DNA of 24,000 nucleotides, from assembly GCA_964344235.1 (NCBI GenBank), contig CAYFMJ010000001.1, positions 371,529-395,528 of the forward strand, given 5' to 3'. This document shows, piece after piece, positions 5,775 through 15,723 of this stretch (within the stretch, counting starts at the first letter, position 1; each line of letters opens with the position of its first letter). The notes below the pieces were generated by a model that worked only from the letters and a program-made list of their open reading frames with translations, was not told the origin of the DNA and made no database searches. Both the position numbers and the translations under genes were made by a program. The stretch is from an uncultured Methanosarcinales archaeon (GTDB lineage: Archaea > Nanobdellota > Nanobdellia > Woesearchaeales > GW2011-AR9).

Positions 5775-5797
5775 TTGTTGCTGTATTTTTTCGACGA

Positions 5798-5865
5798 CAA
5801 AATTGAGCGGAAGGTGTTATGCCCTGGGGACTTTACGTCCCCACGAGGAGCGTAGCGACGAAGAG
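5798..5865 (+). repeat. Linker module copy A (conserved structured inter-cassette element)
   Basis: Sequence: caaaattgagcggaaggTGTTATGccctGGGGACtttacGTCCCCacgagGAGCGTAGCGACGAAGag. It aligns with copies B and C. The hairpin is 5826-5831/5837-5842. An outer helix gttatg (5816-5821) with cgtagc (5851-5856) is possible if G-U pairs are allowed. Confidence 0.8.
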
Positions 5866-5984
5866 TTTTTGAACTACCGTGCATTGACACTGGCGCCGAT
5901 TAACACTTACAGTTTTTAGTTTTAGTATTTCAAAGAAGGGGGAGTTCCGTTAGTTTTAGTTACACATTAAAGGGGGGACAATTT
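5866..5984 (+). repeat. Cassette 1 left inverted-repeat arm
   Basis: Five perfect blocks occur in nested order with the right arm: tttttgaactacc 5866-5878, actggcgcc 5889-5897, gattaacact 5898-5907, gggggagttcc 5938-5948, ggggggacaattt 5972-5984. Confidence 0.85.
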
Positions 5985-5986
5985 AG

Positions 5987-6748
5987 TTACTTGAAAGGTT
6001 TACTTTGTTTCCAGAACCATTCAAAATAATTTCTAAAAGAATCAGCAACTTGTTGACTTGTTATTTCAAAGGCAAAGGGCATTTCACCCTGAGGGATTGC
6101 AATGAGAACCACATCTTTGTAGATCATTACCCAAGAGGGAGATTCAATATTGAGGGGCATTCTTCTGGCTTCGCAATATTTGTAACTATTTCTGTTCTTT
6201 AAGTTTTCATTAGTTACATCAGGATGATAAAGCATTCTGCATTTGATTTTTTCTTTTGCCAAAATCTGATGGTGCTTTTTCCAATACGCATGATGAAAGC
6301 CCGGTTGTTGCGGAGGCAACCCGTACAAAACAACCTCATCTCCCTGTTTCAATTTTTGATAGCGGTTTTCGTAAGCAGTCATTAATCCTCTAAATCCCTC
6401 ATACATATTAGCCTCACTTTTTTTGGCTAACTTTTGTTTAAGGATTAACTGGGGAATCATCTCTTGGATTTTCGCTTTATTTTGTTGAATCTCTTTTTCT
6501 CTAGTTTCAACATAATCCAAGAGTGTATTTGGCGGTGCTGCTTGGTAATACTTAGTTTTTTCTTTGGTCACATAGGAAACAAGCCCTTTCTTGATTAGTT
6601 TTTCAAGAATCCTATAGATGATTGATCTATTTACTCCAGATTTTTCAAGAATAGGGCCGATTGTTGACGAACCAAGCTCTAGCAAAGCCAAGTAAGTTCT
6701 TGTTTCACCATCAGTTAATCCTGCTTCTTGAAGGGCTGAAATGTCCAT
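5987..6748 (-). CDS. TrmB-family transcriptional regulator
   Basis: 253-aa ORF. The N-terminal winged HTH is typical of TrmB (LQEAGLTDGETRTYLALLELGSSTIGPILEKSGVNRSIIYRILEKLIKKGLVSY) and is followed by a C-terminal effector-type domain. Confidence 0.8.
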   Translation of the reverse strand: MDISALQEAGLTDGETRTYLALLELGSSTIGPILEKSGVNRSIIYRILEKLIKKGLVSYVTKEKTKYYQAAPPNTLLDYVETREKEIQQNKAKIQEMIPQLILKQKLAKKSEANMYEGFRGLMTAYENRYQKLKQGDEVVLYGLPPQQPGFHHAYWKKHHQILAKEKIKCRMLYHPDVTNENLKNRNSYKYCEARRMPLNIESPSWVMIYKDVVLIAIPQGEMPFAFEITSQQVADSFRNYFEWFWKQSKPFK

Positions 6749-6867
6749 GCTTTGTTTATGATTGGTTGTTTTATTTAAATCTTTCTAATTAGCATACTAG
6801 TGGTGGTATGATAAAATTATTAAAGAAAGTAGTTGCTACTGTTAAATAAATAACTTAGGAATTAAAA

Positions 6868-7317
6868 ATGACAGAAGAAAATAATGGGCTTGACGAGAGA
6901 TTACTAACACAAGTACAGGCAATTAGCAGATTAGTAATTCCAGGTGTACAAACTGAATTTTGCAGGGGGGTTCCAAAGGAAGGCAGTACTAATGAATTTA
7001 GTCCAAGCACTAACATTCTTATTGAAAACTGTCTGGGTAGAACTGTTTTTGCATCATATATCCACACTCCGTATGGTAAGAATCAATTTAGGATGTGGTT
7101 AGACAATCGTCCAAAAATGTTGGTACCCGCTAGAGATCATTACGATCGTGGAGGCAGTTCAAGAGAAGGCAGCCACTGGTTTTTTGAAGCTACTGGACTA
7201 ACCGAACCAGTACAATCAATAAGAGATCTGTTGACGGATGGTTGGGAGAAAAAAGATGAATACAGCCATAGGGCAACTGCTATTCTTTACGCAAAAGGCG
7301 GGTTTTCGGATGAATAA
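6868..7317 (+). CDS. Hypothetical protein (149 aa)
   Basis: The ORF is divergent from the TrmB gene across an AT-rich region (6749-6867) with TATA-like words. No family is recognised. Confidence 0.65.
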   Translation: MTEENNGLDERLLTQVQAISRLVIPGVQTEFCRGVPKEGSTNEFSPSTNILIENCLGRTVFASYIHTPYGKNQFRMWLDNRPKMLVPARDHYDRGGSSREGSHWFFEATGLTEPVQSIRDLLTDGWEKKDEYSHRATAILYAKGGFSDE

Positions 7318-7344
7318 TCAAGATGAAACTAGGAGCTAAATAAA

Positions 7345-7887
7345 ATGGCAAAAATTGAAAGCATTGAAAGAATACTTGTTGTTGAGGATACTGAACAACA
7401 TATTCAGGCAGCTAGAGAACAACTTGGTGAGTATGAACTTACAATGGTGGGAGATTTCGAAAGATTCCTCGACGCAGTGAAAGGTACTTGTTTTGACGCG
7501 CCGAATAATAGAATGAAGCGTAATTATAACTTTCCTGAAGATCCAAAATTTGATGCTGTACTTAGCGATATGAATTTTCCTATGAATGTAAAAGACTTGT
7601 ACAGTGGTTACAATTCCCCTGGTGTTTTAGGATATGCAGTAGGGATGATCTGTTCACAAGCATCAATTCCATTAGTAGGAATTGTGTCTGCAACAAACCA
7701 CCATGAAGGATCTGTTGCAGGAAGTCTAATGTACTTGAAAGCAACAAGACACGCTGATAGAATTTTTCAAGTAGGAGATACACGAATAATGTATTTTGAT
7801 GATGACTCTTTTGGCACAAGGGATCAACCTAAGAGATGGGATAAAGCATTAGAATGTTTAAATGCAGGAACCAGAAATATTGATTAG
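7345..7887 (+). CDS. Flavodoxin-fold protein resembling a stand-alone CheY-like receiver domain
   Basis: An SD aggag lies 9 nt upstream. The pattern is RILVVEDTE (beta1 acidic pair), FDAVLSDMNFP (beta3 Asp), IPLVGIVSAT (beta4 Ser/Thr), YLKA (beta5 Lys), with an insertion between beta2 and beta3. The assignment is by pattern only. Confidence 0.55.
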   Translation: MAKIESIERILVVEDTEQHIQAAREQLGEYELTMVGDFERFLDAVKGTCFDAPNNRMKRNYNFPEDPKFDAVLSDMNFPMNVKDLYSGYNSPGVLGYAVGMICSQASIPLVGIVSATNHHEGSVAGSLMYLKATRHADRIFQVGDTRIMYFDDDSFGTRDQPKRWDKALECLNAGTRNID

Positions 7888-8031
7888 AAATTGTCCCCCC
7901 TCTTTTTTTTGTTTTTAGGAACTCCCCCGTTAAAGTTTTAGTGTTAATCATAGTTTTAGTTCTTAGAAAGGCGCCAGTTAAGATTGTTTAATTTAGCGTT
8001 AGCGTAGTATCCAAAATAGGTAGTTCAAAAA
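7888..8031 (+). repeat. Cassette 1 right inverted-repeat arm
   Basis: These are exact reverse complements of the left-arm blocks in mirrored order: aaattgtcccccc 7888-7900, ggaactccccc 7918-7928, agtgttaatc 7940-7949, ggcgccagt 7970-7978, ggtagttcaaaaa 8019-8031. Confidence 0.85.
7901..7916 (+). terminator. Oligo-T archaeal terminator candidate
   Basis: tcTTTTTTTTgTTTTT lies immediately after the stop at 7887. Archaeal termination typically uses T-runs on the coding strand. Confidence 0.5.
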
Positions 8032-8090
8032 TTGGGCATATACGATGTTATGTGCCCCCGACTTCACGTCGGGGTGCGTAACGACCGAAG
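8026..8090 (+). repeat. Linker module copy B
   Basis: Sequence: caaaaattgggcatataCGATGTTATGtgccCCCGACttcacGTCGGGgtGCGTAACGACCGAAG. Positions 8047-8082 fold as one 15-bp hairpin (4 G-U pairs, C8059 bulged, loop 8063-8067). Confidence 0.8.
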
Positions 8091-8103
8091 GGAGTGGAGC
8101 AAG

Positions 8104-8165
8104 TATTTGAGTTGCGTCATAGAAAGGGGCTTGGCATAGTTTTGGTTTTTAGAGGGGCTTAAGTT
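8104..8165 (+). repeat. Cassette 2 left inverted-repeat arm
   Basis: Blocks: tatttgagttgc 8104-8115, ggggcttggc 8126-8135, agaggggcttaagtt 8151-8165. Confidence 0.85.
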
Positions 8166-8501
8166 TTACTTTTTGAAAATGTTTACTAAAGAATCCTGAA
8201 TCTCTTTGATTTTGTTTTCTTTCAAAGTGCCAATTTTTGAAGAAATGATTGAAACATCGGCAGTGAAAAGCTTGTTTGGTCTTACAAGACTTGATACTGT
8301 CAATTTTCCAGTTTGAAAATTTTCTGTTTCAAGAGGAACTGCATATTCATCGCTACGAGCAGAAGCAGTTGTTATCTGTGCAAGAATTAAATCGTCACCT
8401 GTGAGATTTGCCACCACTACTGCTGGTCGTTTCCGTGATGAACTTAGATCAGAGAAAGGAAAAAGAAGAACAACGACATCTCCTCTTACAAGTGTTTCCA
8501 T
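8166..8501 (-). CDS. mazF: PemK/MazF-family type II toxin (endoribonuclease)
   Basis: 111 aa. RGDVVVLLFPFSDLSSSRKRPAVVVANLTGDDLILAQITT matches the MazF/PemK N-terminal SH3-like signature. It overlaps the upstream antitoxin gene by 16 nt. Confidence 0.85.
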   Translation of the reverse strand: METLVRGDVVVLLFPFSDLSSSRKRPAVVVANLTGDDLILAQITTASARSDEYAVPLETENFQTGKLTVSSLVRPNKLFTADVSIISSKIGTLKENKIKEIQDSLVNIFKK

Positions 8502-8734
8502 GCTTCATCCTCCTCTTTAGTAAGCCAATCTTTTGCTAAAGATTTTTCACTGGCTAAAGCTGGAAACATTTTTTCATTGAATTGTTTTAACGGTCGTAGT
8601 TCTACTTTATTATCAAAGGCTAAAATTGCTACTTTTGTTCCCTCTTTGAATCCCTCAAGTTTTCTAATGTTTTTTGGGATAGCAATTTGACCTTTCTCTG
8701 TTACAGTTGCAGTTCTCATTTCGATTAATGGCAT
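8486..8734 (-). CDS. mazE: AbrB/MazE/SpoVT-family antitoxin
   Basis: It carries the swapped-hairpin motif TVTEKGQIAIPKNIRKLEGFKEGTKVAILAFDNKVELRPL. I prefer ATG at 8732-8734 (SD aggtga 5-6 nt upstream) over the GTG at 8743 used in the track. Confidence 0.8.
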   Translation of the reverse strand: MPLIEMRTATVTEKGQIAIPKNIRKLEGFKEGTKVAILAFDNKVELRPLKQFNEKMFPALASEKSLAKDWLTKEEDEAWKHL

Positions 8735-8742
8735 TTTGATCA

Positions 8743-8768
8743 CCTACTTAGTAATTCTTACAAGTAGG
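8743..8768. promoter_or_regulatory. Palindrome at the mazE 5' end (candidate autoregulatory operator)
   Basis: In cctacttagtaattcttacaagtagg, cctactt (8743-8749) pairs with aagtagg (8762-8768). It overlaps the SD complement tcacct (8740-8745). Confidence 0.4.
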
Positions 8769-8896
8769 ATAAGTAAGAAATATATAAATTTTTCTGTATT
8801 TATGTTGTTACTAAATGATGAATAAATCAAGGAAAGATTTATAAATGATTAGCCGTTTCTAAGACTATAATCATTAAAATCAAGAGGTCAATAAAA

Positions 8897-9199
8897 ATGT
8901 CAGAAAATAAATTAGTATTTGCTCGTGCATATTGGATGAATAGTCCATTTGAAGAAGGACAAGCAGGATTCTTTGTAGGAGATCCAAGTAATCCATCTAA
9001 AGGATCATATGAAGGTAACAATAATTTAAGGTTTGCTGTTGCTAAAGTTGCTGAAAGAAGTTCTGAATTATCTACAACTGTTGATACAGAATTTGAAGGT
9101 CTAGCAAGAGATGGCAAAATGACTTTATTGTTGCAACCAATTGAGCAAGATACTGCTAAATACAAAAGTGTTGATGAATTAGCACGCATGTATCTTTAA
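8897..9199 (+). CDS. Hypothetical protein (100 aa)
   Basis: The ORF has an SD-like agaggt 9 nt upstream and is divergent from mazEF. No family is recognised. Confidence 0.6.
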   Translation: MSENKLVFARAYWMNSPFEEGQAGFFVGDPSNPSKGSYEGNNNLRFAVAKVAERSSELSTTVDTEFEGLARDGKMTLLLQPIEQDTAKYKSVDELARMYL

Positions 9200-9204
9200 A
9201 ATTA

Positions 9205-9216
9205 TTTTTTCTTTTT
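9205..9216 (+). terminator. Oligo-T terminator candidate
   Basis: TTTTTTcTTTTT lies directly after stop 9199. Further T5 runs are at 9231-9235 and 9237-9240. Confidence 0.45.
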
Positions 9217-9347
9217 AACTTAAGCCCCTCTTTTTCTTTTTACATTTTAGTTTTTAACATAGAGCCAAGCCCCATCAATAATAGAATTTCTGCATTCAGT
9301 TTATAGTCAGTAAACAGAAGCAGAGTAAACATCAAGCAACTCAAATA
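9217..9347 (+). repeat. Cassette 2 right inverted-repeat arm
   Basis: These are exact reverse complements of the left-arm blocks in mirrored order: aacttaagcccctct 9217-9231, gccaagcccc 9264-9273, gcaactcaaata 9336-9347. Confidence 0.85.
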
Positions 9348-9409
9348 TTGCACATAACGATGTTATGTTGTGGGAGGTTCATCCTCCCAGCCGAGCGTTA
9401 GCGAGGAAG
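9342..9409 (+). repeat. Linker module copy C
   Basis: Sequence: caaatattgcacataaCGATGTTATGttgtGGGAGGttcatCCTCCCagccGAGCGTTAGCGAGGAAG. The 10-mer cgatgttatg (9358-9367) is identical to 8043-8052. The hairpin is 9372-9377/9383-9388. Confidence 0.8.
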
Positions 9410-9443
9410 TTTAGAAATCAGGAACAAGCTTTACCCCCGCCAT
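9410..9443 (+). repeat. Cassette 3 left inverted-repeat arm
   Basis: Blocks: tttagaaatcaggaa 9410-9424 and ttacccccgccat 9431-9443. Confidence 0.7.
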
Positions 9444-9485
9444 TGTAGAATTTCACTGCCATACTCATCTTTTACTATTTTTTAG

Positions 9486-9499
9486 TAATATTTTTAAAG
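9486..9499 (+). promoter_or_regulatory. TATA-box-like element
   Basis: taatatttttaaag is centred about 29 nt upstream of ATG 9522. Confidence 0.4.
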
Positions 9500-9521
9500 A
9501 AAGAGGTTTCTCATACTATTT

Positions 9522-10040
9522 ATGCAACAATTACTAACATACAGAGAATTTCCATTTGATCATTCATTATTTTTGGATAAAGGTATTAATGCAGGAGATT
9601 TGCATGTTACTCTTTATGATGAAATGGGTTGTACTCAAGATGGTGACCAAAAGTTAAGTGAAGTAAATAGAAGAGTTCATAATGCTGCTGTAAGAAGTTT
9701 AGTTGGTAAATTTGCTGGTGATTTAGGACAAAGAGTTTCTTTTGGTGTTTCTAGATTTTTAAAAAAAAGTAAACGTGCTAGTCCTGATTATTCATTAAGT
9801 GAAGTTGCAGATGTTCTTGTTGGAGCAGGAGCGTATGAATCAAGAGAAGCAGCATTAGAACATTTACCTGAATTTTTAGGAACCTCTTTAAGGACTGATG
9901 GAAAACGAAAATATGCTAACTCAATGTGGACGGGAGTACAAACTAGTTTAGATATTGAAGTAAAAGATGAGTGGCATTGGTTTGGAAGAATAGATTCTGA
10001 TAGTGGTGAACAGAAGGTATATTTACATAAGCAAAAATAA
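9522..10040 (+). CDS. Hypothetical protein (172 aa)
   Basis: This is the only long ORF of cassette 3. No family is recognised. Confidence 0.6.
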   Translation: MQQLLTYREFPFDHSLFLDKGINAGDLHVTLYDEMGCTQDGDQKLSEVNRRVHNAAVRSLVGKFAGDLGQRVSFGVSRFLKKSKRASPDYSLSEVADVLVGAGAYESREAALEHLPEFLGTSLRTDGKRKYANSMWTGVQTSLDIEVKDEWHWFGRIDSDSGEQKVYLHKQK

Positions 10041-10044
10041 TTTT

Positions 10045-10091
10045 ATGGTGGGGGTTATTCAAGTTCTACGTCCTAATTCCTGATCTCTAAA
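10045..10091 (+). repeat. Cassette 3 right inverted-repeat arm
   Basis: atggtgggggtta 10045-10057 pairs with 9431-9443 (11 Watson-Crick pairs, 1 G-T, 1 mismatch). ttcctgatctctaaa 10077-10091 is the reverse complement of 9410-9424 at 14/15. The order is nested. Confidence 0.7.
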
Positions 10092-10156
10092 TTCAACATA
10101 CGGACTACTTAAGTGCACTTTGGGCTTAAGTAGTGAAATTCTTTGAATTCAAAGCC

Positions 10157-10250
10157 TCTACTCAATCCCATAACGCAAAAAACTGTTACTACTTTGCATG
10201 GAAATGTCTCACTACCCACTCGACAACCACGGGTAGAGTATATAAACGAG
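10157..10250 (+). repeat. Degenerate fourth linker-like module at the right edge of the array
   Basis: ctcaatcccataacg (compare ctcaaatattgcacataacg in copy C) ...gttac... is followed by the GC-hexamer hairpin ctaccc 10212-10217 / gggtag 10231-10236. The similarity to copies A-C is weak. Confidence 0.3.
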
Positions 10251-10407: not shown

Positions 10408-10444
10408 GTAAGATTTATAACCTCTTATTCTTTTCTTTTTATTG

Positions 10445-11008
10445 ATGAAAAAGAAGGTGACGAAGAGAACAGTTCGTAGGAAAGTTGTGAAGCGTAAGCC
10501 TGCTGCAAAAAGAGCTACGAGAAGAAAGAAAGTTGTTAGGAAACCGGTTCGGAAAAAGACAGTGAAGCGATCTGTTAAAAGAAAGCCCGTAAAGAAGAGA
10601 GCTGTGAAACGAAAAGTTCTTCACAAAAAACCGCCACAGAAAAGACGTGCGAGAGGATATATTCCGTTCGATGTTCTTGTCGATAAATTACAGCATTCTA
10701 AGAAGAAACAGAGTGTGCTTGATGTGACTGATTATTCTAAAGCCGTGAAGACTGTAAAGATGAAAGAATCGAAGGATTACATCCCAGTTTCACAGTTAGC
10801 AAAGCGGTTTGAGAAGAAACGAACACCAGAGTCGTATCGAAAGGAAATTAAGAAAAAGATGCGGAAAGGTTTATTGCATCGGATTAAAGATAAAGTGAAA
10901 AGAAAGAAGCCAGTTAAACGGCGAGTTGTGAAAAAGAAGAAAACTGTTTCCAAAAGAAAATCTGTTAAGGGAAAAGTAACGAAGAAAAAACCACGTAAGA
11001 AAAGATAA
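10445..11008 (+). CDS. Extremely Lys/Arg-rich protein, probable nucleic-acid-binding
   Basis: Both termini are KRK/VKRKP-type repeats. The centre has two copies of a [GD]-Y-I-P-x3-L motif ending in a K/R run (GYIPFDVLVDKLQHSKKK; DYIPVSQLAKRFEKKR). TATA atttataa (10413-10420) lies about 28 nt upstream of ATG 10445; the track start 10442 is TTG. Confidence 0.75.
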   Translation: MKKKVTKRTVRRKVVKRKPAAKRATRRKKVVRKPVRKKTVKRSVKRKPVKKRAVKRKVLHKKPPQKRRARGYIPFDVLVDKLQHSKKKQSVLDVTDYSKAVKTVKMKESKDYIPVSQLAKRFEKKRTPESYRKEIKKKMRKGLLHRIKDKVKRKKPVKRRVVKKKKTVSKRKSVKGKVTKKKPRKKR

Positions 11009-11121
11009 TGCTCCCGCGAGGACTTTCATTCACGTTTGTGATTTTGAACCCCGGATTTCTAGGTCCGCAACCTAGCGTCCTATTTGCACTCTTTGAGAGA
11101 TCCATGCTAGACGATGGGAGC
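11009..11121 (-). tRNA. tRNA-Arg(GCG) with two non-canonical introns (D-loop and T-loop)
   Basis: The reverse complement reads GCTCCCA TC GTCT AGCATGGAT[18 nt]A GGAC G CTAGG TTGCGGA CCTAG AAATC CGGGG TTCAAA[20 nt]T CCTCG CGGGAGC A. Removing plus-strand 11082-11099 and 11023-11042 gives a 75-nt cloverleaf with a TTCAAAT T-loop. There is one A7-C66 mismatch and no CCA. Confidence 0.7.
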
Positions 11122-11154
11122 ACTAACGGTTCGAGAAGGAGTTATTTTAAAAAT

Positions 11155-14240: not shown

Positions 14241-14359
14241 AGCCCCGGGCGAGAGTTGAACTCGCGACCTCCTGATATCTTACCATGCTTGTGCTCTATT
14301 GAAAACATAGCAGATAGATGGCTACAAGTCAGGTGCTATAGCCACTAAGCCACCGGGGC
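14241..14359 (-). tRNA. tRNA-Thr(UGU) with a 46-nt intron at the canonical 37/38 position
   Basis: The reverse complement reads GCCCCGG TG GCTT AGTGGCTA TAGC A CCTGA CTTGTA[46 nt]A TCAGG AGGTC GCGAG TTCAACT CTCGC CCGGGGC T. The intron is plus-strand 14277-14322. No CCA is encoded. Confidence 0.85.
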
Positions 14360-15586: not shown

Positions 15587-15593
15587 TTTATCT

Positions 15594-15708
15594 GAGTTAA
15601 GCCTTTTTCAGTGAGCAGGGCACGGCACGATTACGGTGACTTATTGAATCTTTTATTCTACGCCACCGTGTGCCTCCATTGGCGCTGCTCACTTACACGG
15701 CTTAACTC
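15594..15708. other. 115-nt long imperfect hairpin (candidate structured RNA or 5' UTR element)
   Basis: gagttaagcc 15594-15603 pairs perfectly with ggcttaactc 15699-15708. agtgagcag 15610-15618 pairs with ctgctcact 15685-15693. An inner GC-rich region has two mutually exclusive pairings. Confidence 0.45.
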
Positions 15709-15723
15709 TTATTTTTTTACTTA

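Follow-up and report, generated by a model that had tools for sequence, protein, structure and literature searches.

Known dif sites consist of two inverted arms of ~11 bp around a 6-bp spacer, and the attC sites of integrons carry R'' (RYYYAAC) on the 5' side and R' (GTTRRRY) on the 3' side, the two enclosing L''/L' and a variable loop. In archaea, the dif site of P. abyssi (left arm ATTGGATATAA) is bound and recombined by XerA in vitro, dif adjoins xerA in Sulfolobales, and Thermococcales have inverted repeats on either side of dif (PMC2958812). The attachment site of CTXphi, one of the integrative mobile elements exploiting Xer recombination (IMEX), consists of some 150 nt of DNA folded into a hairpin (PMC5357621). 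The pdif modules of Acinetobacter are small, recombinase-free units bounded by Xer sites, often with a toxin-antitoxin pair or one adaptive gene as cargo; shuffling moves them from one replicon to another, and their ends are inverted copies of one half-site (PMC13141974, PMC6449649). Here we describe an array of gene cassettes set apart by hairpin-bearing linkers in a stretch of 24,000 nt (positions 371,529 to 395,528, forward strand, of contig CAYFMJ010000001.1, assembly GCA_964344235.1; hereafter the window, with coordinates counted from its first letter) from a Woesearchaeota-type DPANN archaeon. We estimate a probability of roughly 60% that the linkers are XerA-dependent, integron-like or IMEX-like recombination sites bounding the mobile cassettes of a chromosomal array; under this reading, the hairpins would be structural accessories to the site. 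None of the rival explanations considered below fits the data on breakpoints, linkage and symmetry as well.

Linker architecture and covariation

All three window linkers share TGTTATG, 4 nt, a GC-rich stem of 6-7 bp with a 5-nt TTYAY loop (hairpin P1), and a 3' box that reads GCGT(T)ARCGA and then GAAG(T). The original prediction had placed these linkers, with their stems and loops, exactly (TGTTATG at 5815, 8046 and 9361), and a pattern covering the three had 0 matches in 100 shuffled windows. Each linker also folds better than its own shuffles (RNA z -2.7 to -3.3), and the continuous hairpin claimed for linker B was reproduced by folding. What had been overlooked lies to the left of TGTTATG (a conserved 5' box and a palindromic core), in the 3' box (a second hairpin, P2), beside every linker (cassette-specific inverted repeats) and at 10164-10174 (a fourth site, in the form of a degenerate half-site). 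The palindrome reads CATAAC-GAT-GTTATG in linker C and CATATAC-GAT-GTTATG in linker B, and the general site core can be written as ATTnnnCATAAC-GAT-GTTATGnnn, with a left arm ATT-n'n'n'-CATAA(C) and a right arm (G)TTATG-nnn. That is, the arms are inverted repeats of 6 conserved and 3 cassette-specific nucleotides, plus ATT/AGT, and P1 and P2 are positioned within the right arm, before its last three bases AGT. The sites of the window, all on the plus strand, are the following.

5797 to 5866 (+): linker A, the first site of the array (covariance model 57.3 bits, E 1e-12), with an atypical left arm AAAATTGAGCGGAAGG, TGTTATG at 5815-5821, P1 at 5825-5843 (GGGGAC/GTCCCC, loop TTTAC), a P2 region at 5844-5863 with a GC-GTA-GC core at 5850-5856, and AGT at 5864-5866.
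8032 to 8098 (+): linker B (51 bits, E 5e-11), with left arm TTGGGCATATAC at 8032-8043, centre GA/T, TGTTATG at 8046-8052, P1 at 8056-8074 (CCCGAC/GTCGGG, loop TTCAC), a P2 region at 8075-8092, and AGT at 8093-8095.
9347 to 9410 (+): linker C (80.7 bits, E 7e-19), with left arm ATTGCACATAAC at 9347-9358, centre GAT, TGTTATG at 9361-9367, P1 at 9371-9389 (GGGAGG/CCTCCC, loop TTCAT), P2 at 9390-9407 (CCGAGC-GTTA-GCGAGG), and AGT at 9408-9410.
10164 to 10174 (+): terminal half-site AATCCCATAAC (CCCATAAC), a left arm only, free of hairpins, which ends cassette 3 and the array; a half-site of this type also closes the arrays of L171, L185, L143, L192 and L193 (other loci are referred to by such L numbers throughout).

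A tighter pattern run on metagenome contigs returned 50 loci, about 25 of which are true relatives: their stems are fully complementary and comprise at least 8 different sequences, the loop is always TTYAY, and a box upstream, aAATTgaRCWTAACGA, is conserved. A covariance model identified 62 copies in the loci found by pattern and 37 more around xerA genes. Hits in metagenomes numbered 25 for the exact pattern and 54 for the model, 51 of the latter being distinct, and the structural statistics that follow refer to these 51 copies. In these, P1 is 95% paired, as compared to 34-49% in slid controls; all 7 of its pairs change on both sides, with a covariation value that was matched by 0 of 500 shuffles. 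Thus, the earlier proposal of an inner hairpin conserved in shape and variable in sequence holds in the wider family. The 3' box is better read as the second hairpin, P2, centred on a GTA/GTTA loop with tandem G·A; its compensatory variants include GC/GC, AC/GT, GT/AC, GGC/GCC, GCAC/GTGC, GACAC/GTGTC and GCATG/CATGC, and its outer pairs, separated from the centre by the tandem G·A, start directly after P1 and stop directly before AGT. Linkers of an array all lie on one strand, spaced 0.5-3 kb, and arrays can be long (at least 12 linkers in one genome, L190 plus L163, 5 in L157 and 4 in L171). A scan of genome contigs with a loose pattern gave chance matches only, the sole hairpin-bearing one (in L071) being the 3' end of a gene, and viral, plasmid and phage collections held no linker copy. 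Readings of the linkers as C/D-box, K-turn, CRISPR-repeat or bulge-helix-bulge elements were dropped on sequence alone, the defining boxes or bulges being absent, and ARAGORN called no tRNA at the linkers. A further candidate hairpin within one linker, P0, was rejected as well: its two core arms do not covary, variable position 18/32 is unpaired in 19 of the 51 copies, and the two arms of one linker come from two different cassettes.

Two claims that pointed to a plus-strand RNA did not survive this larger sample. An outer helix around P1, pairing gttatg with cgtagc, can be drawn in 86% of copies and needs two G·T pairs, but the invariance of GTTATG leaves it without covariation, and the pairing of the neighbouring triplet with the 3' box (17 of 43 fully paired vs. 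31% in controls) does not covary either. Likewise, the argument from G-U pairs finds no footing in P1, which has no strand bias because its 357 pair positions include 7 G·T vs. 6 A·C mismatches. One observation still leans toward the plus-strand reading, in that the circle junctions reconstructed below fold somewhat better on the plus strand, an edge that could be a base-composition effect. It is therefore worth weighing whether the linkers are small structured plus-strand RNAs (small RNAs, processing or termination signals) beside which the cassette layout would be incidental. The covarying hairpins, the T-run that often follows the AAGT box and the greater stability of plus-strand folds (by -8.2 kcal/mol with RNA parameters, p 2e-4) would all suit such RNAs; against these stand the missing G·U excess in P1 and the lack of any Rfam match, at the gathering score or at E<=5. 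Cassette genes also lie on both strands, arrays adjoin xerA, synteny breaks exactly in the palindromic core, and the best fold needs joined cassette ends, which are not local in a linear array transcript. Hence, we consider an RNA function of the linkers unlikely, and among the candidate functions originally offered, a recombination site folded as DNA lies closest to the evidence.

Synteny breakpoints and linkage to xerA

The linker A hairpin and its downstream flank recur behind other upstream sequences in L150 and L178. L157 and L171 have the hairpin and the downstream sequence in common and are different upstream of AACGATG, and L164 and L146 likewise keep the hairpins and the downstream flank and differ upstream. 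In L183, two types of hairpin are found joined to the same cassette end, and in L190 the homology of a duplicated cassette (93% identity over 919 nt) stops directly after CATAACGATGTTA. L193 and L196, which have identical XerA and different last cassettes, are identical in sequence exactly from the point after the AAC of the left arm, and L171 and L143 part from each other at a comparable point. These cases show P1 and P2 travelling with the downstream cassette and synteny, both between strains and between paralogous cassettes, breaking within CATAAC-GAT-GTTA. Taken together, they place the probable crossover inside AAC-GAT-GTTA, where the overlap region of a tyrosine recombinase would be expected to lie.

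The same breakpoints bear on the possibility that an HUH-type single-stranded DNA enzyme (IS200/IS605 TnpA-like or a rolling-circle Rep) nicks at the TTYAY hairpin and generates single-stranded circles. Stems of variable sequence capped by a conserved loop are typical HUH substrates, folding favours the plus strand, and an IS200-like Y1 transposase is present in L160; however, the breakpoints fall in the palindromic core and none in the P1 loop, P1 lacks strand asymmetry, and no HUH gene is consistently linked to the arrays, with no Y1 in the window or beside arrays except that of L160, 4.4 kb away. We regard nicking by such an enzyme as quite improbable.

Several further observations concern junctions in individual loci. 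In L129 (ERZ930062; 1793-2593, compared to the window from 9235 onward), which represents a strain variant, the match to the window is lost within the cassette-2 right flank and gives way to a diverged linker, TGTTAAG..GAGCGAAGCGACCGCAGAGTTTTT, and then a cassette-1-type left flank with different cargo. In L167 (Ga0257124_1044934, 1420 nt), one cassette start is present twice, once behind a foreign cassette end and once behind its own, an arrangement that fits either a circle junction or a tandem duplicate. Finally, the contigs of L121, L131 and L126, short assemblies from the same population, end within a few bases of a window linker or terminal site (5809, 8015 and 10160), which hints at assembly-graph branching, and hence heterogeneity, at these points.

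The gene that accompanies the arrays encodes a tyrosine recombinase. A 277-aa member lies just past the last cassette in L171 and L185, on the linkers' strand, and three further XerA proteins each have an array immediately upstream in the same orientation; the latter three xerA loci show conserved housekeeping genes downstream and strain-variable cassettes upstream. An array-adjacent xerA is thus found downstream of the array and on the same strand at five independent loci (L171, L185, L190/191, L192 and L193-196). The array-linked recombinases are 277-301 aa long; four of them, at 230-236 bits, clear the NCBIfam XerA equivalog cut-off of 220, and homologues of the linked recombinase are widespread in Woesearchaeota and Nanoarchaeota. 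Beside xerA stands a hairpin-less core in which the right arm is unbroken, ATTTTGCATATAC-GGT-GTTATGTTCATT. The consensus left arm of the linkers, ATTGAACATAA, matches the left arm of P. abyssi dif at 9 of 11 positions, and the inner CATAA/TTATG is also common to E. coli dif (comparison with PMC2958812).

The arrays could alternatively be classical integrons, with attC sites recombined by an IntI integrase. Both the cassette array itself and sites that are conserved in structure and variable in sequence are features of such integrons, and archaeal integrons have been reported, including in Nanoarchaeota (PMC9668308). The linked recombinases, on the other hand, score 199-217 bits on the integron-integrase model (TIGR02249, cut-off 265), with the match in two stretches, and pass the XerA model instead. 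The sites do not have the layout of attC either: instead of AAC...palindrome...GTT, the AAC and GTT boxes are adjacent, CATAAC and GTTATG lying 3 nt apart, and the hairpins are outside, 3' of GTTATG, so that GTT comes before the hairpin on either strand. An integron in the strict sense is accordingly highly improbable.

Sequence immediately upstream of xerA elsewhere has a homologue beyond the end of the window array, as follows.

10210 to 10247 (+): block CACTACCCACTCGACAA..GTATATAAAC, homologous to the sequence immediately upstream of xerA in other loci and followed here only by a 44-aa open reading frame (ORF), with no xerA.

The conserved form of this block, CACTGGACA..CTGGACA..TGCGG..TATATAAA, precedes xerA in L171, L185, L190, L192 and L193. 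A copy also stands ahead of a RhuM-family gene in L137 (2560-2620), and the block may be a shared promoter or operator module.

Cassette ends and the predicted circle

The stretches between consecutive window sites, together with the nested inverted repeats at their ends, are the following.

5815 to 8045: cassette 1, with a TrmB-family regulator at 5987-6748 (-) and two unknown ORFs at 6868-7317 and 7345-7887 (+); nested inverted-repeat islands TTTTTGAACTACC (5866-5878 / 8019-8031), TGGCGCC (5891-5897 / 7970-7976), GATTAACACT (5898-5907 / 7940-7949), GGGGGAGTTCC (5938-5948 / 7918-7928) and GGGGGGACAATT (5972-5983 / 7889-7900).
8046 to 9360: cassette 2, with a MazF/PemK toxin at 8166-8501 (-), a MazE antitoxin at 8486-8743 (-) and an unknown ORF at 8897-9199 (+); its ends, GTTATGTGC and GCACATAAC, are perfect inverted repeats, with islands GCAAGTATTTGAGTTGC (8099-8115 / 9336-9351), GGGGCTTGG (8126-8134 / 9265-9273) and GGGGCTTAAGTT (8154-8165 / 9217-9228).
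9361 to 10174: cassette 3, with one unknown ORF at 9522-10040 (+) and inverted repeats TTTAGAAATCAGGAA (9410-9424 / 10077-10091) and TACCCCCGCCAT / ATGGTGGGGGTTA.

In each window cassette, the nested repeats begin just after one linker and stop just before the next, and the cassette inverted repeats abut AAGT and ATTG. Across arrays, 13 of 25 cassettes have inverted repeats above the 95th percentile of cross-cassette controls. The triplet that follows GTTAWG agrees with the triplet preceding the next linker's left arm, which belongs to the other end of the same cassette, in 11 of 22 cassettes, the corresponding rates being 12% for random pairs and 5% inside one linker. When the ends were joined as in a circle, they formed a long imperfect hairpin or cloverleaf, with reconstructed junction folds of -62.1 kcal/mol (z -7.9) for cassette 1, -58.4 (z -7.3) for cassette 2 and -42.4 (z -4.3) for cassette 3, as opposed to the actual array junctions of the window, which have no notable fold (z +0.6 and -1.9). 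Of 22 cassettes, 20 had a circle junction more stable than the array junction, and the difference averaged -14.9 kcal/mol. Further, a cassette starts as GTTATG-nnn-[P1][P2]-AGT-flank, and its reverse-complemented end reads GTTATG-nnn-AAT-flank; by this comparison, P1 and P2 together are a ~45-nt insertion in an otherwise palindromic right arm of 11 bp.

Inverted ends of this kind could alternatively mean that the cassettes are non-autonomous transposons with terminal inverted repeats, ending in GTTATG...CATAAC, that were serially inserted into a preferred target by a transposase encoded elsewhere, with the hairpins belonging to one transposon end. Every cassette's inverted ends do run inward 10-140 nt from the terminal hexamers, and one left-flank module is found with different cargo in the window, L150 and L129. 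Such transposons should nevertheless be doubted on several counts: no transposase lies in or beside the arrays (the sole IS200-like gene, in L160, being 4.4 kb away), a constant GAT spacer rather than variable target duplications separates the elements, the outer flanks of the array are not direct repeats (GGT vs. GCA in the window), the arrays sit at one locus beside xerA, and the end sequence is dif-like. Serial transposition is, in our judgment, an improbable source of these arrays.

Cargo across arrays includes MazEF, RHH/PIN, ParE, methyltransferases and unknown genes, on both strands, and no recombinase domains were found in the cassette ORFs examined; cargo of this type is what cassette or module platforms typically carry. 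The flanks of cassette 1 are conserved in L138, L150 and L178. Distant copies of its module of TrmB and a 180-aa protein, in L133, L137 and L138, are without linkers, and L138 retains the right flank of cassette 1 (window 7889-7976 vs. L138 2318-2420), which is ~85% identical by eye between the two metagenomes, the TrmB and 180-aa proteins being 94% and 61% identical, respectively. GTTTTAG / TTAGTTTTAG motifs lie between the inverted-repeat islands (window 5910-5965, 7910-7965, 8139-8152 and 9236-9252, and also the flanks in L143 and L171); since they recur on the plus strand in both flanks of a cassette, they are direct, not inverted, repeats.

Returning to XerA-dependent recombination, linkage and site similarity suggest that the host XerA would excise and insert cassettes as circles by crossover in the core, in the manner of IMEX elements, dif modules and integron cassettes. 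In an excised circle, whether supercoiled or single-stranded, the cassette ends would pair and P1 and P2 would fold out, and the resulting cloverleaf or cruciform would restore the split right arm. An integrated linker, by comparison, is made of arms from two cassettes and has no closing stem; it would presumably be a poorer substrate, so that cassettes would stay put. If P1 and P2 serve as a structure-specific DNA accessory, their shape would be kept and their sequence would not, as is the case.

It is important to note that several observations weigh against this model. The arm-restoring role of P1 and P2 is a hypothesis drawn from geometry, and the plus strand folds better than the minus strand, which a pure double-strand cruciform model does not predict. 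The centre of the site has an odd number of nucleotides, 3 when the arms are taken as 6 bp (5 to 7 under other parsings), as against the 6 bp of known dif sites. The first sites of arrays have GGT at the centre and the last ones TCG, TGT, TCA, AGA or GCA, not GAT, a pattern not expected from simple reciprocal recombination. Clear end complementarity is missing from about half of the cassettes, and neither a circular intermediate nor an empty site was observed in the loci examined. For the window in particular, no xerA or other tyrosine recombinase was found in the 24 kb and the terminal site is degenerate; its array may, therefore, be a fossil or be served in trans.

Neighbourhood and comparison with known systems

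The array of the window is embedded among archaeal housekeeping genes, with a PGK whose closest homologues (~60% identity) are from Nanoarchaeota or Woesearchaeota. The sequence stems from metagenome project PRJEB17505, for which no paper was found. A tRNA gene at 14241-14359 (-; 119 nt with an intron of ~48 nt, Rfam 56.6 bits), missed by ARAGORN with bacterial settings, fits an archaeal host. Shortly after the array, a Lys/Arg-rich ORF of 188 aa with an internal repeat and no Pfam match lies at 10442-11008 (+), and at 11009-11135 (-) there is a tRNA-like cloverleaf with a 7-bp acceptor-like stem, GCUCCC..GGGAGC (z -2.1, no Rfam match at E<=0.1), which may be an unusual or multi-intron tRNA, or nothing. 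Finally, a rod-like inverted repeat of ~115 nt lies between divergent genes at 15588-15712 (RNA minimum free energy -50 to -55 kcal/mol, z -6.7 and -8.4, no Rfam match).

The genomes of DPANN archaea are very small, and little is understood of how accessory genes enter and leave them. It is tempting, if tentative, to go one step further and view these arrays as an archaeal gene-capture platform, that is, an integron-like array with housekeeping XerA/dif of DPANN archaea as its hub, at which split-arm sites would be good substrates only in the excised, folded circle; recombination would then be gated by DNA structure, in a manner that evolved independently of integron attC. A cassette array based on XerA/dif would, if confirmed, represent a second, independent answer to the problem that integrons solve in bacteria, and would mean that a chromosome-resolution system can be converted into a gene-capture platform in archaea. 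The split-arm site with two hairpins also predicts that DNA structure controls a tyrosine recombinase, and the core together with P1 and P2 provides a simple, searchable marker for the flexible gene pool of DPANN. We found no papers that link XerA with DPANN or with cassette arrays, in a literature search that was incomplete.

Among known systems, the IMEX that stand in tandem at dif (CTXphi, VGJphi, TLCphi and the gonococcal genetic island) are likewise recombinase-free and have dif-like sites in direct order, and the arrays described here share this organization: cassettes without a recombinase, linkers as direct repeats, and an array that ends at a hairpin-less core beside xerA. They differ in being archaeal, in their presumably single recombinase, XerA, and in consisting of gene cassettes of 0.5-3 kb rather than phages or islands, with arrays of at least 12 units, two covarying hairpins in the right arm, inverted-repeat cassette ends, and a position directly upstream of xerA. 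Acinetobacter pdif modules resemble the linker cassettes in that the latter are also small, toxin-antitoxin-bearing and recombinase-free, with ends that are inverted half-sites. However, pdif sites are plain 28-bp sequences that alternate between C/D and D/C and are plasmid-borne (Rep_3 plasmids), whereas the linkers point in the same direction, lie on the chromosome beside xerA among housekeeping genes, have no plasmid matches, and bring hairpins and long cassette-specific inverted flanks.

With integrons, including archaeal ones (Ghaly et al. 2022), the arrays share the tandem, promoter-poor arrangement of accessory genes, toxin-antitoxin genes among them, sites whose folded shape is kept while the sequence varies, and a tyrosine recombinase gene at one end. 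In contrast to integrons, there is no IntI, the core is a palindrome of the double-strand type with hairpins beside it rather than R''-L''...L'-R', cassette genes lie on both strands, and the recombinase gene, in the orientation of the sites, occupies the array's far end. The likeness to archaeal XerA/dif lies in the left arm and in the palindromic arms, as opposed to the many copies per chromosome instead of one, the odd centre, the right arm split by hairpins and the accessory genes that these sites delimit. In conclusion, the system is like IMEX arrays, Acinetobacter dif modules and integrons, and it departs from defining features of the latter two. Its host domain, the architecture of its sites and its placement set it apart from all three, and it has a fair chance of being a distinct platform.

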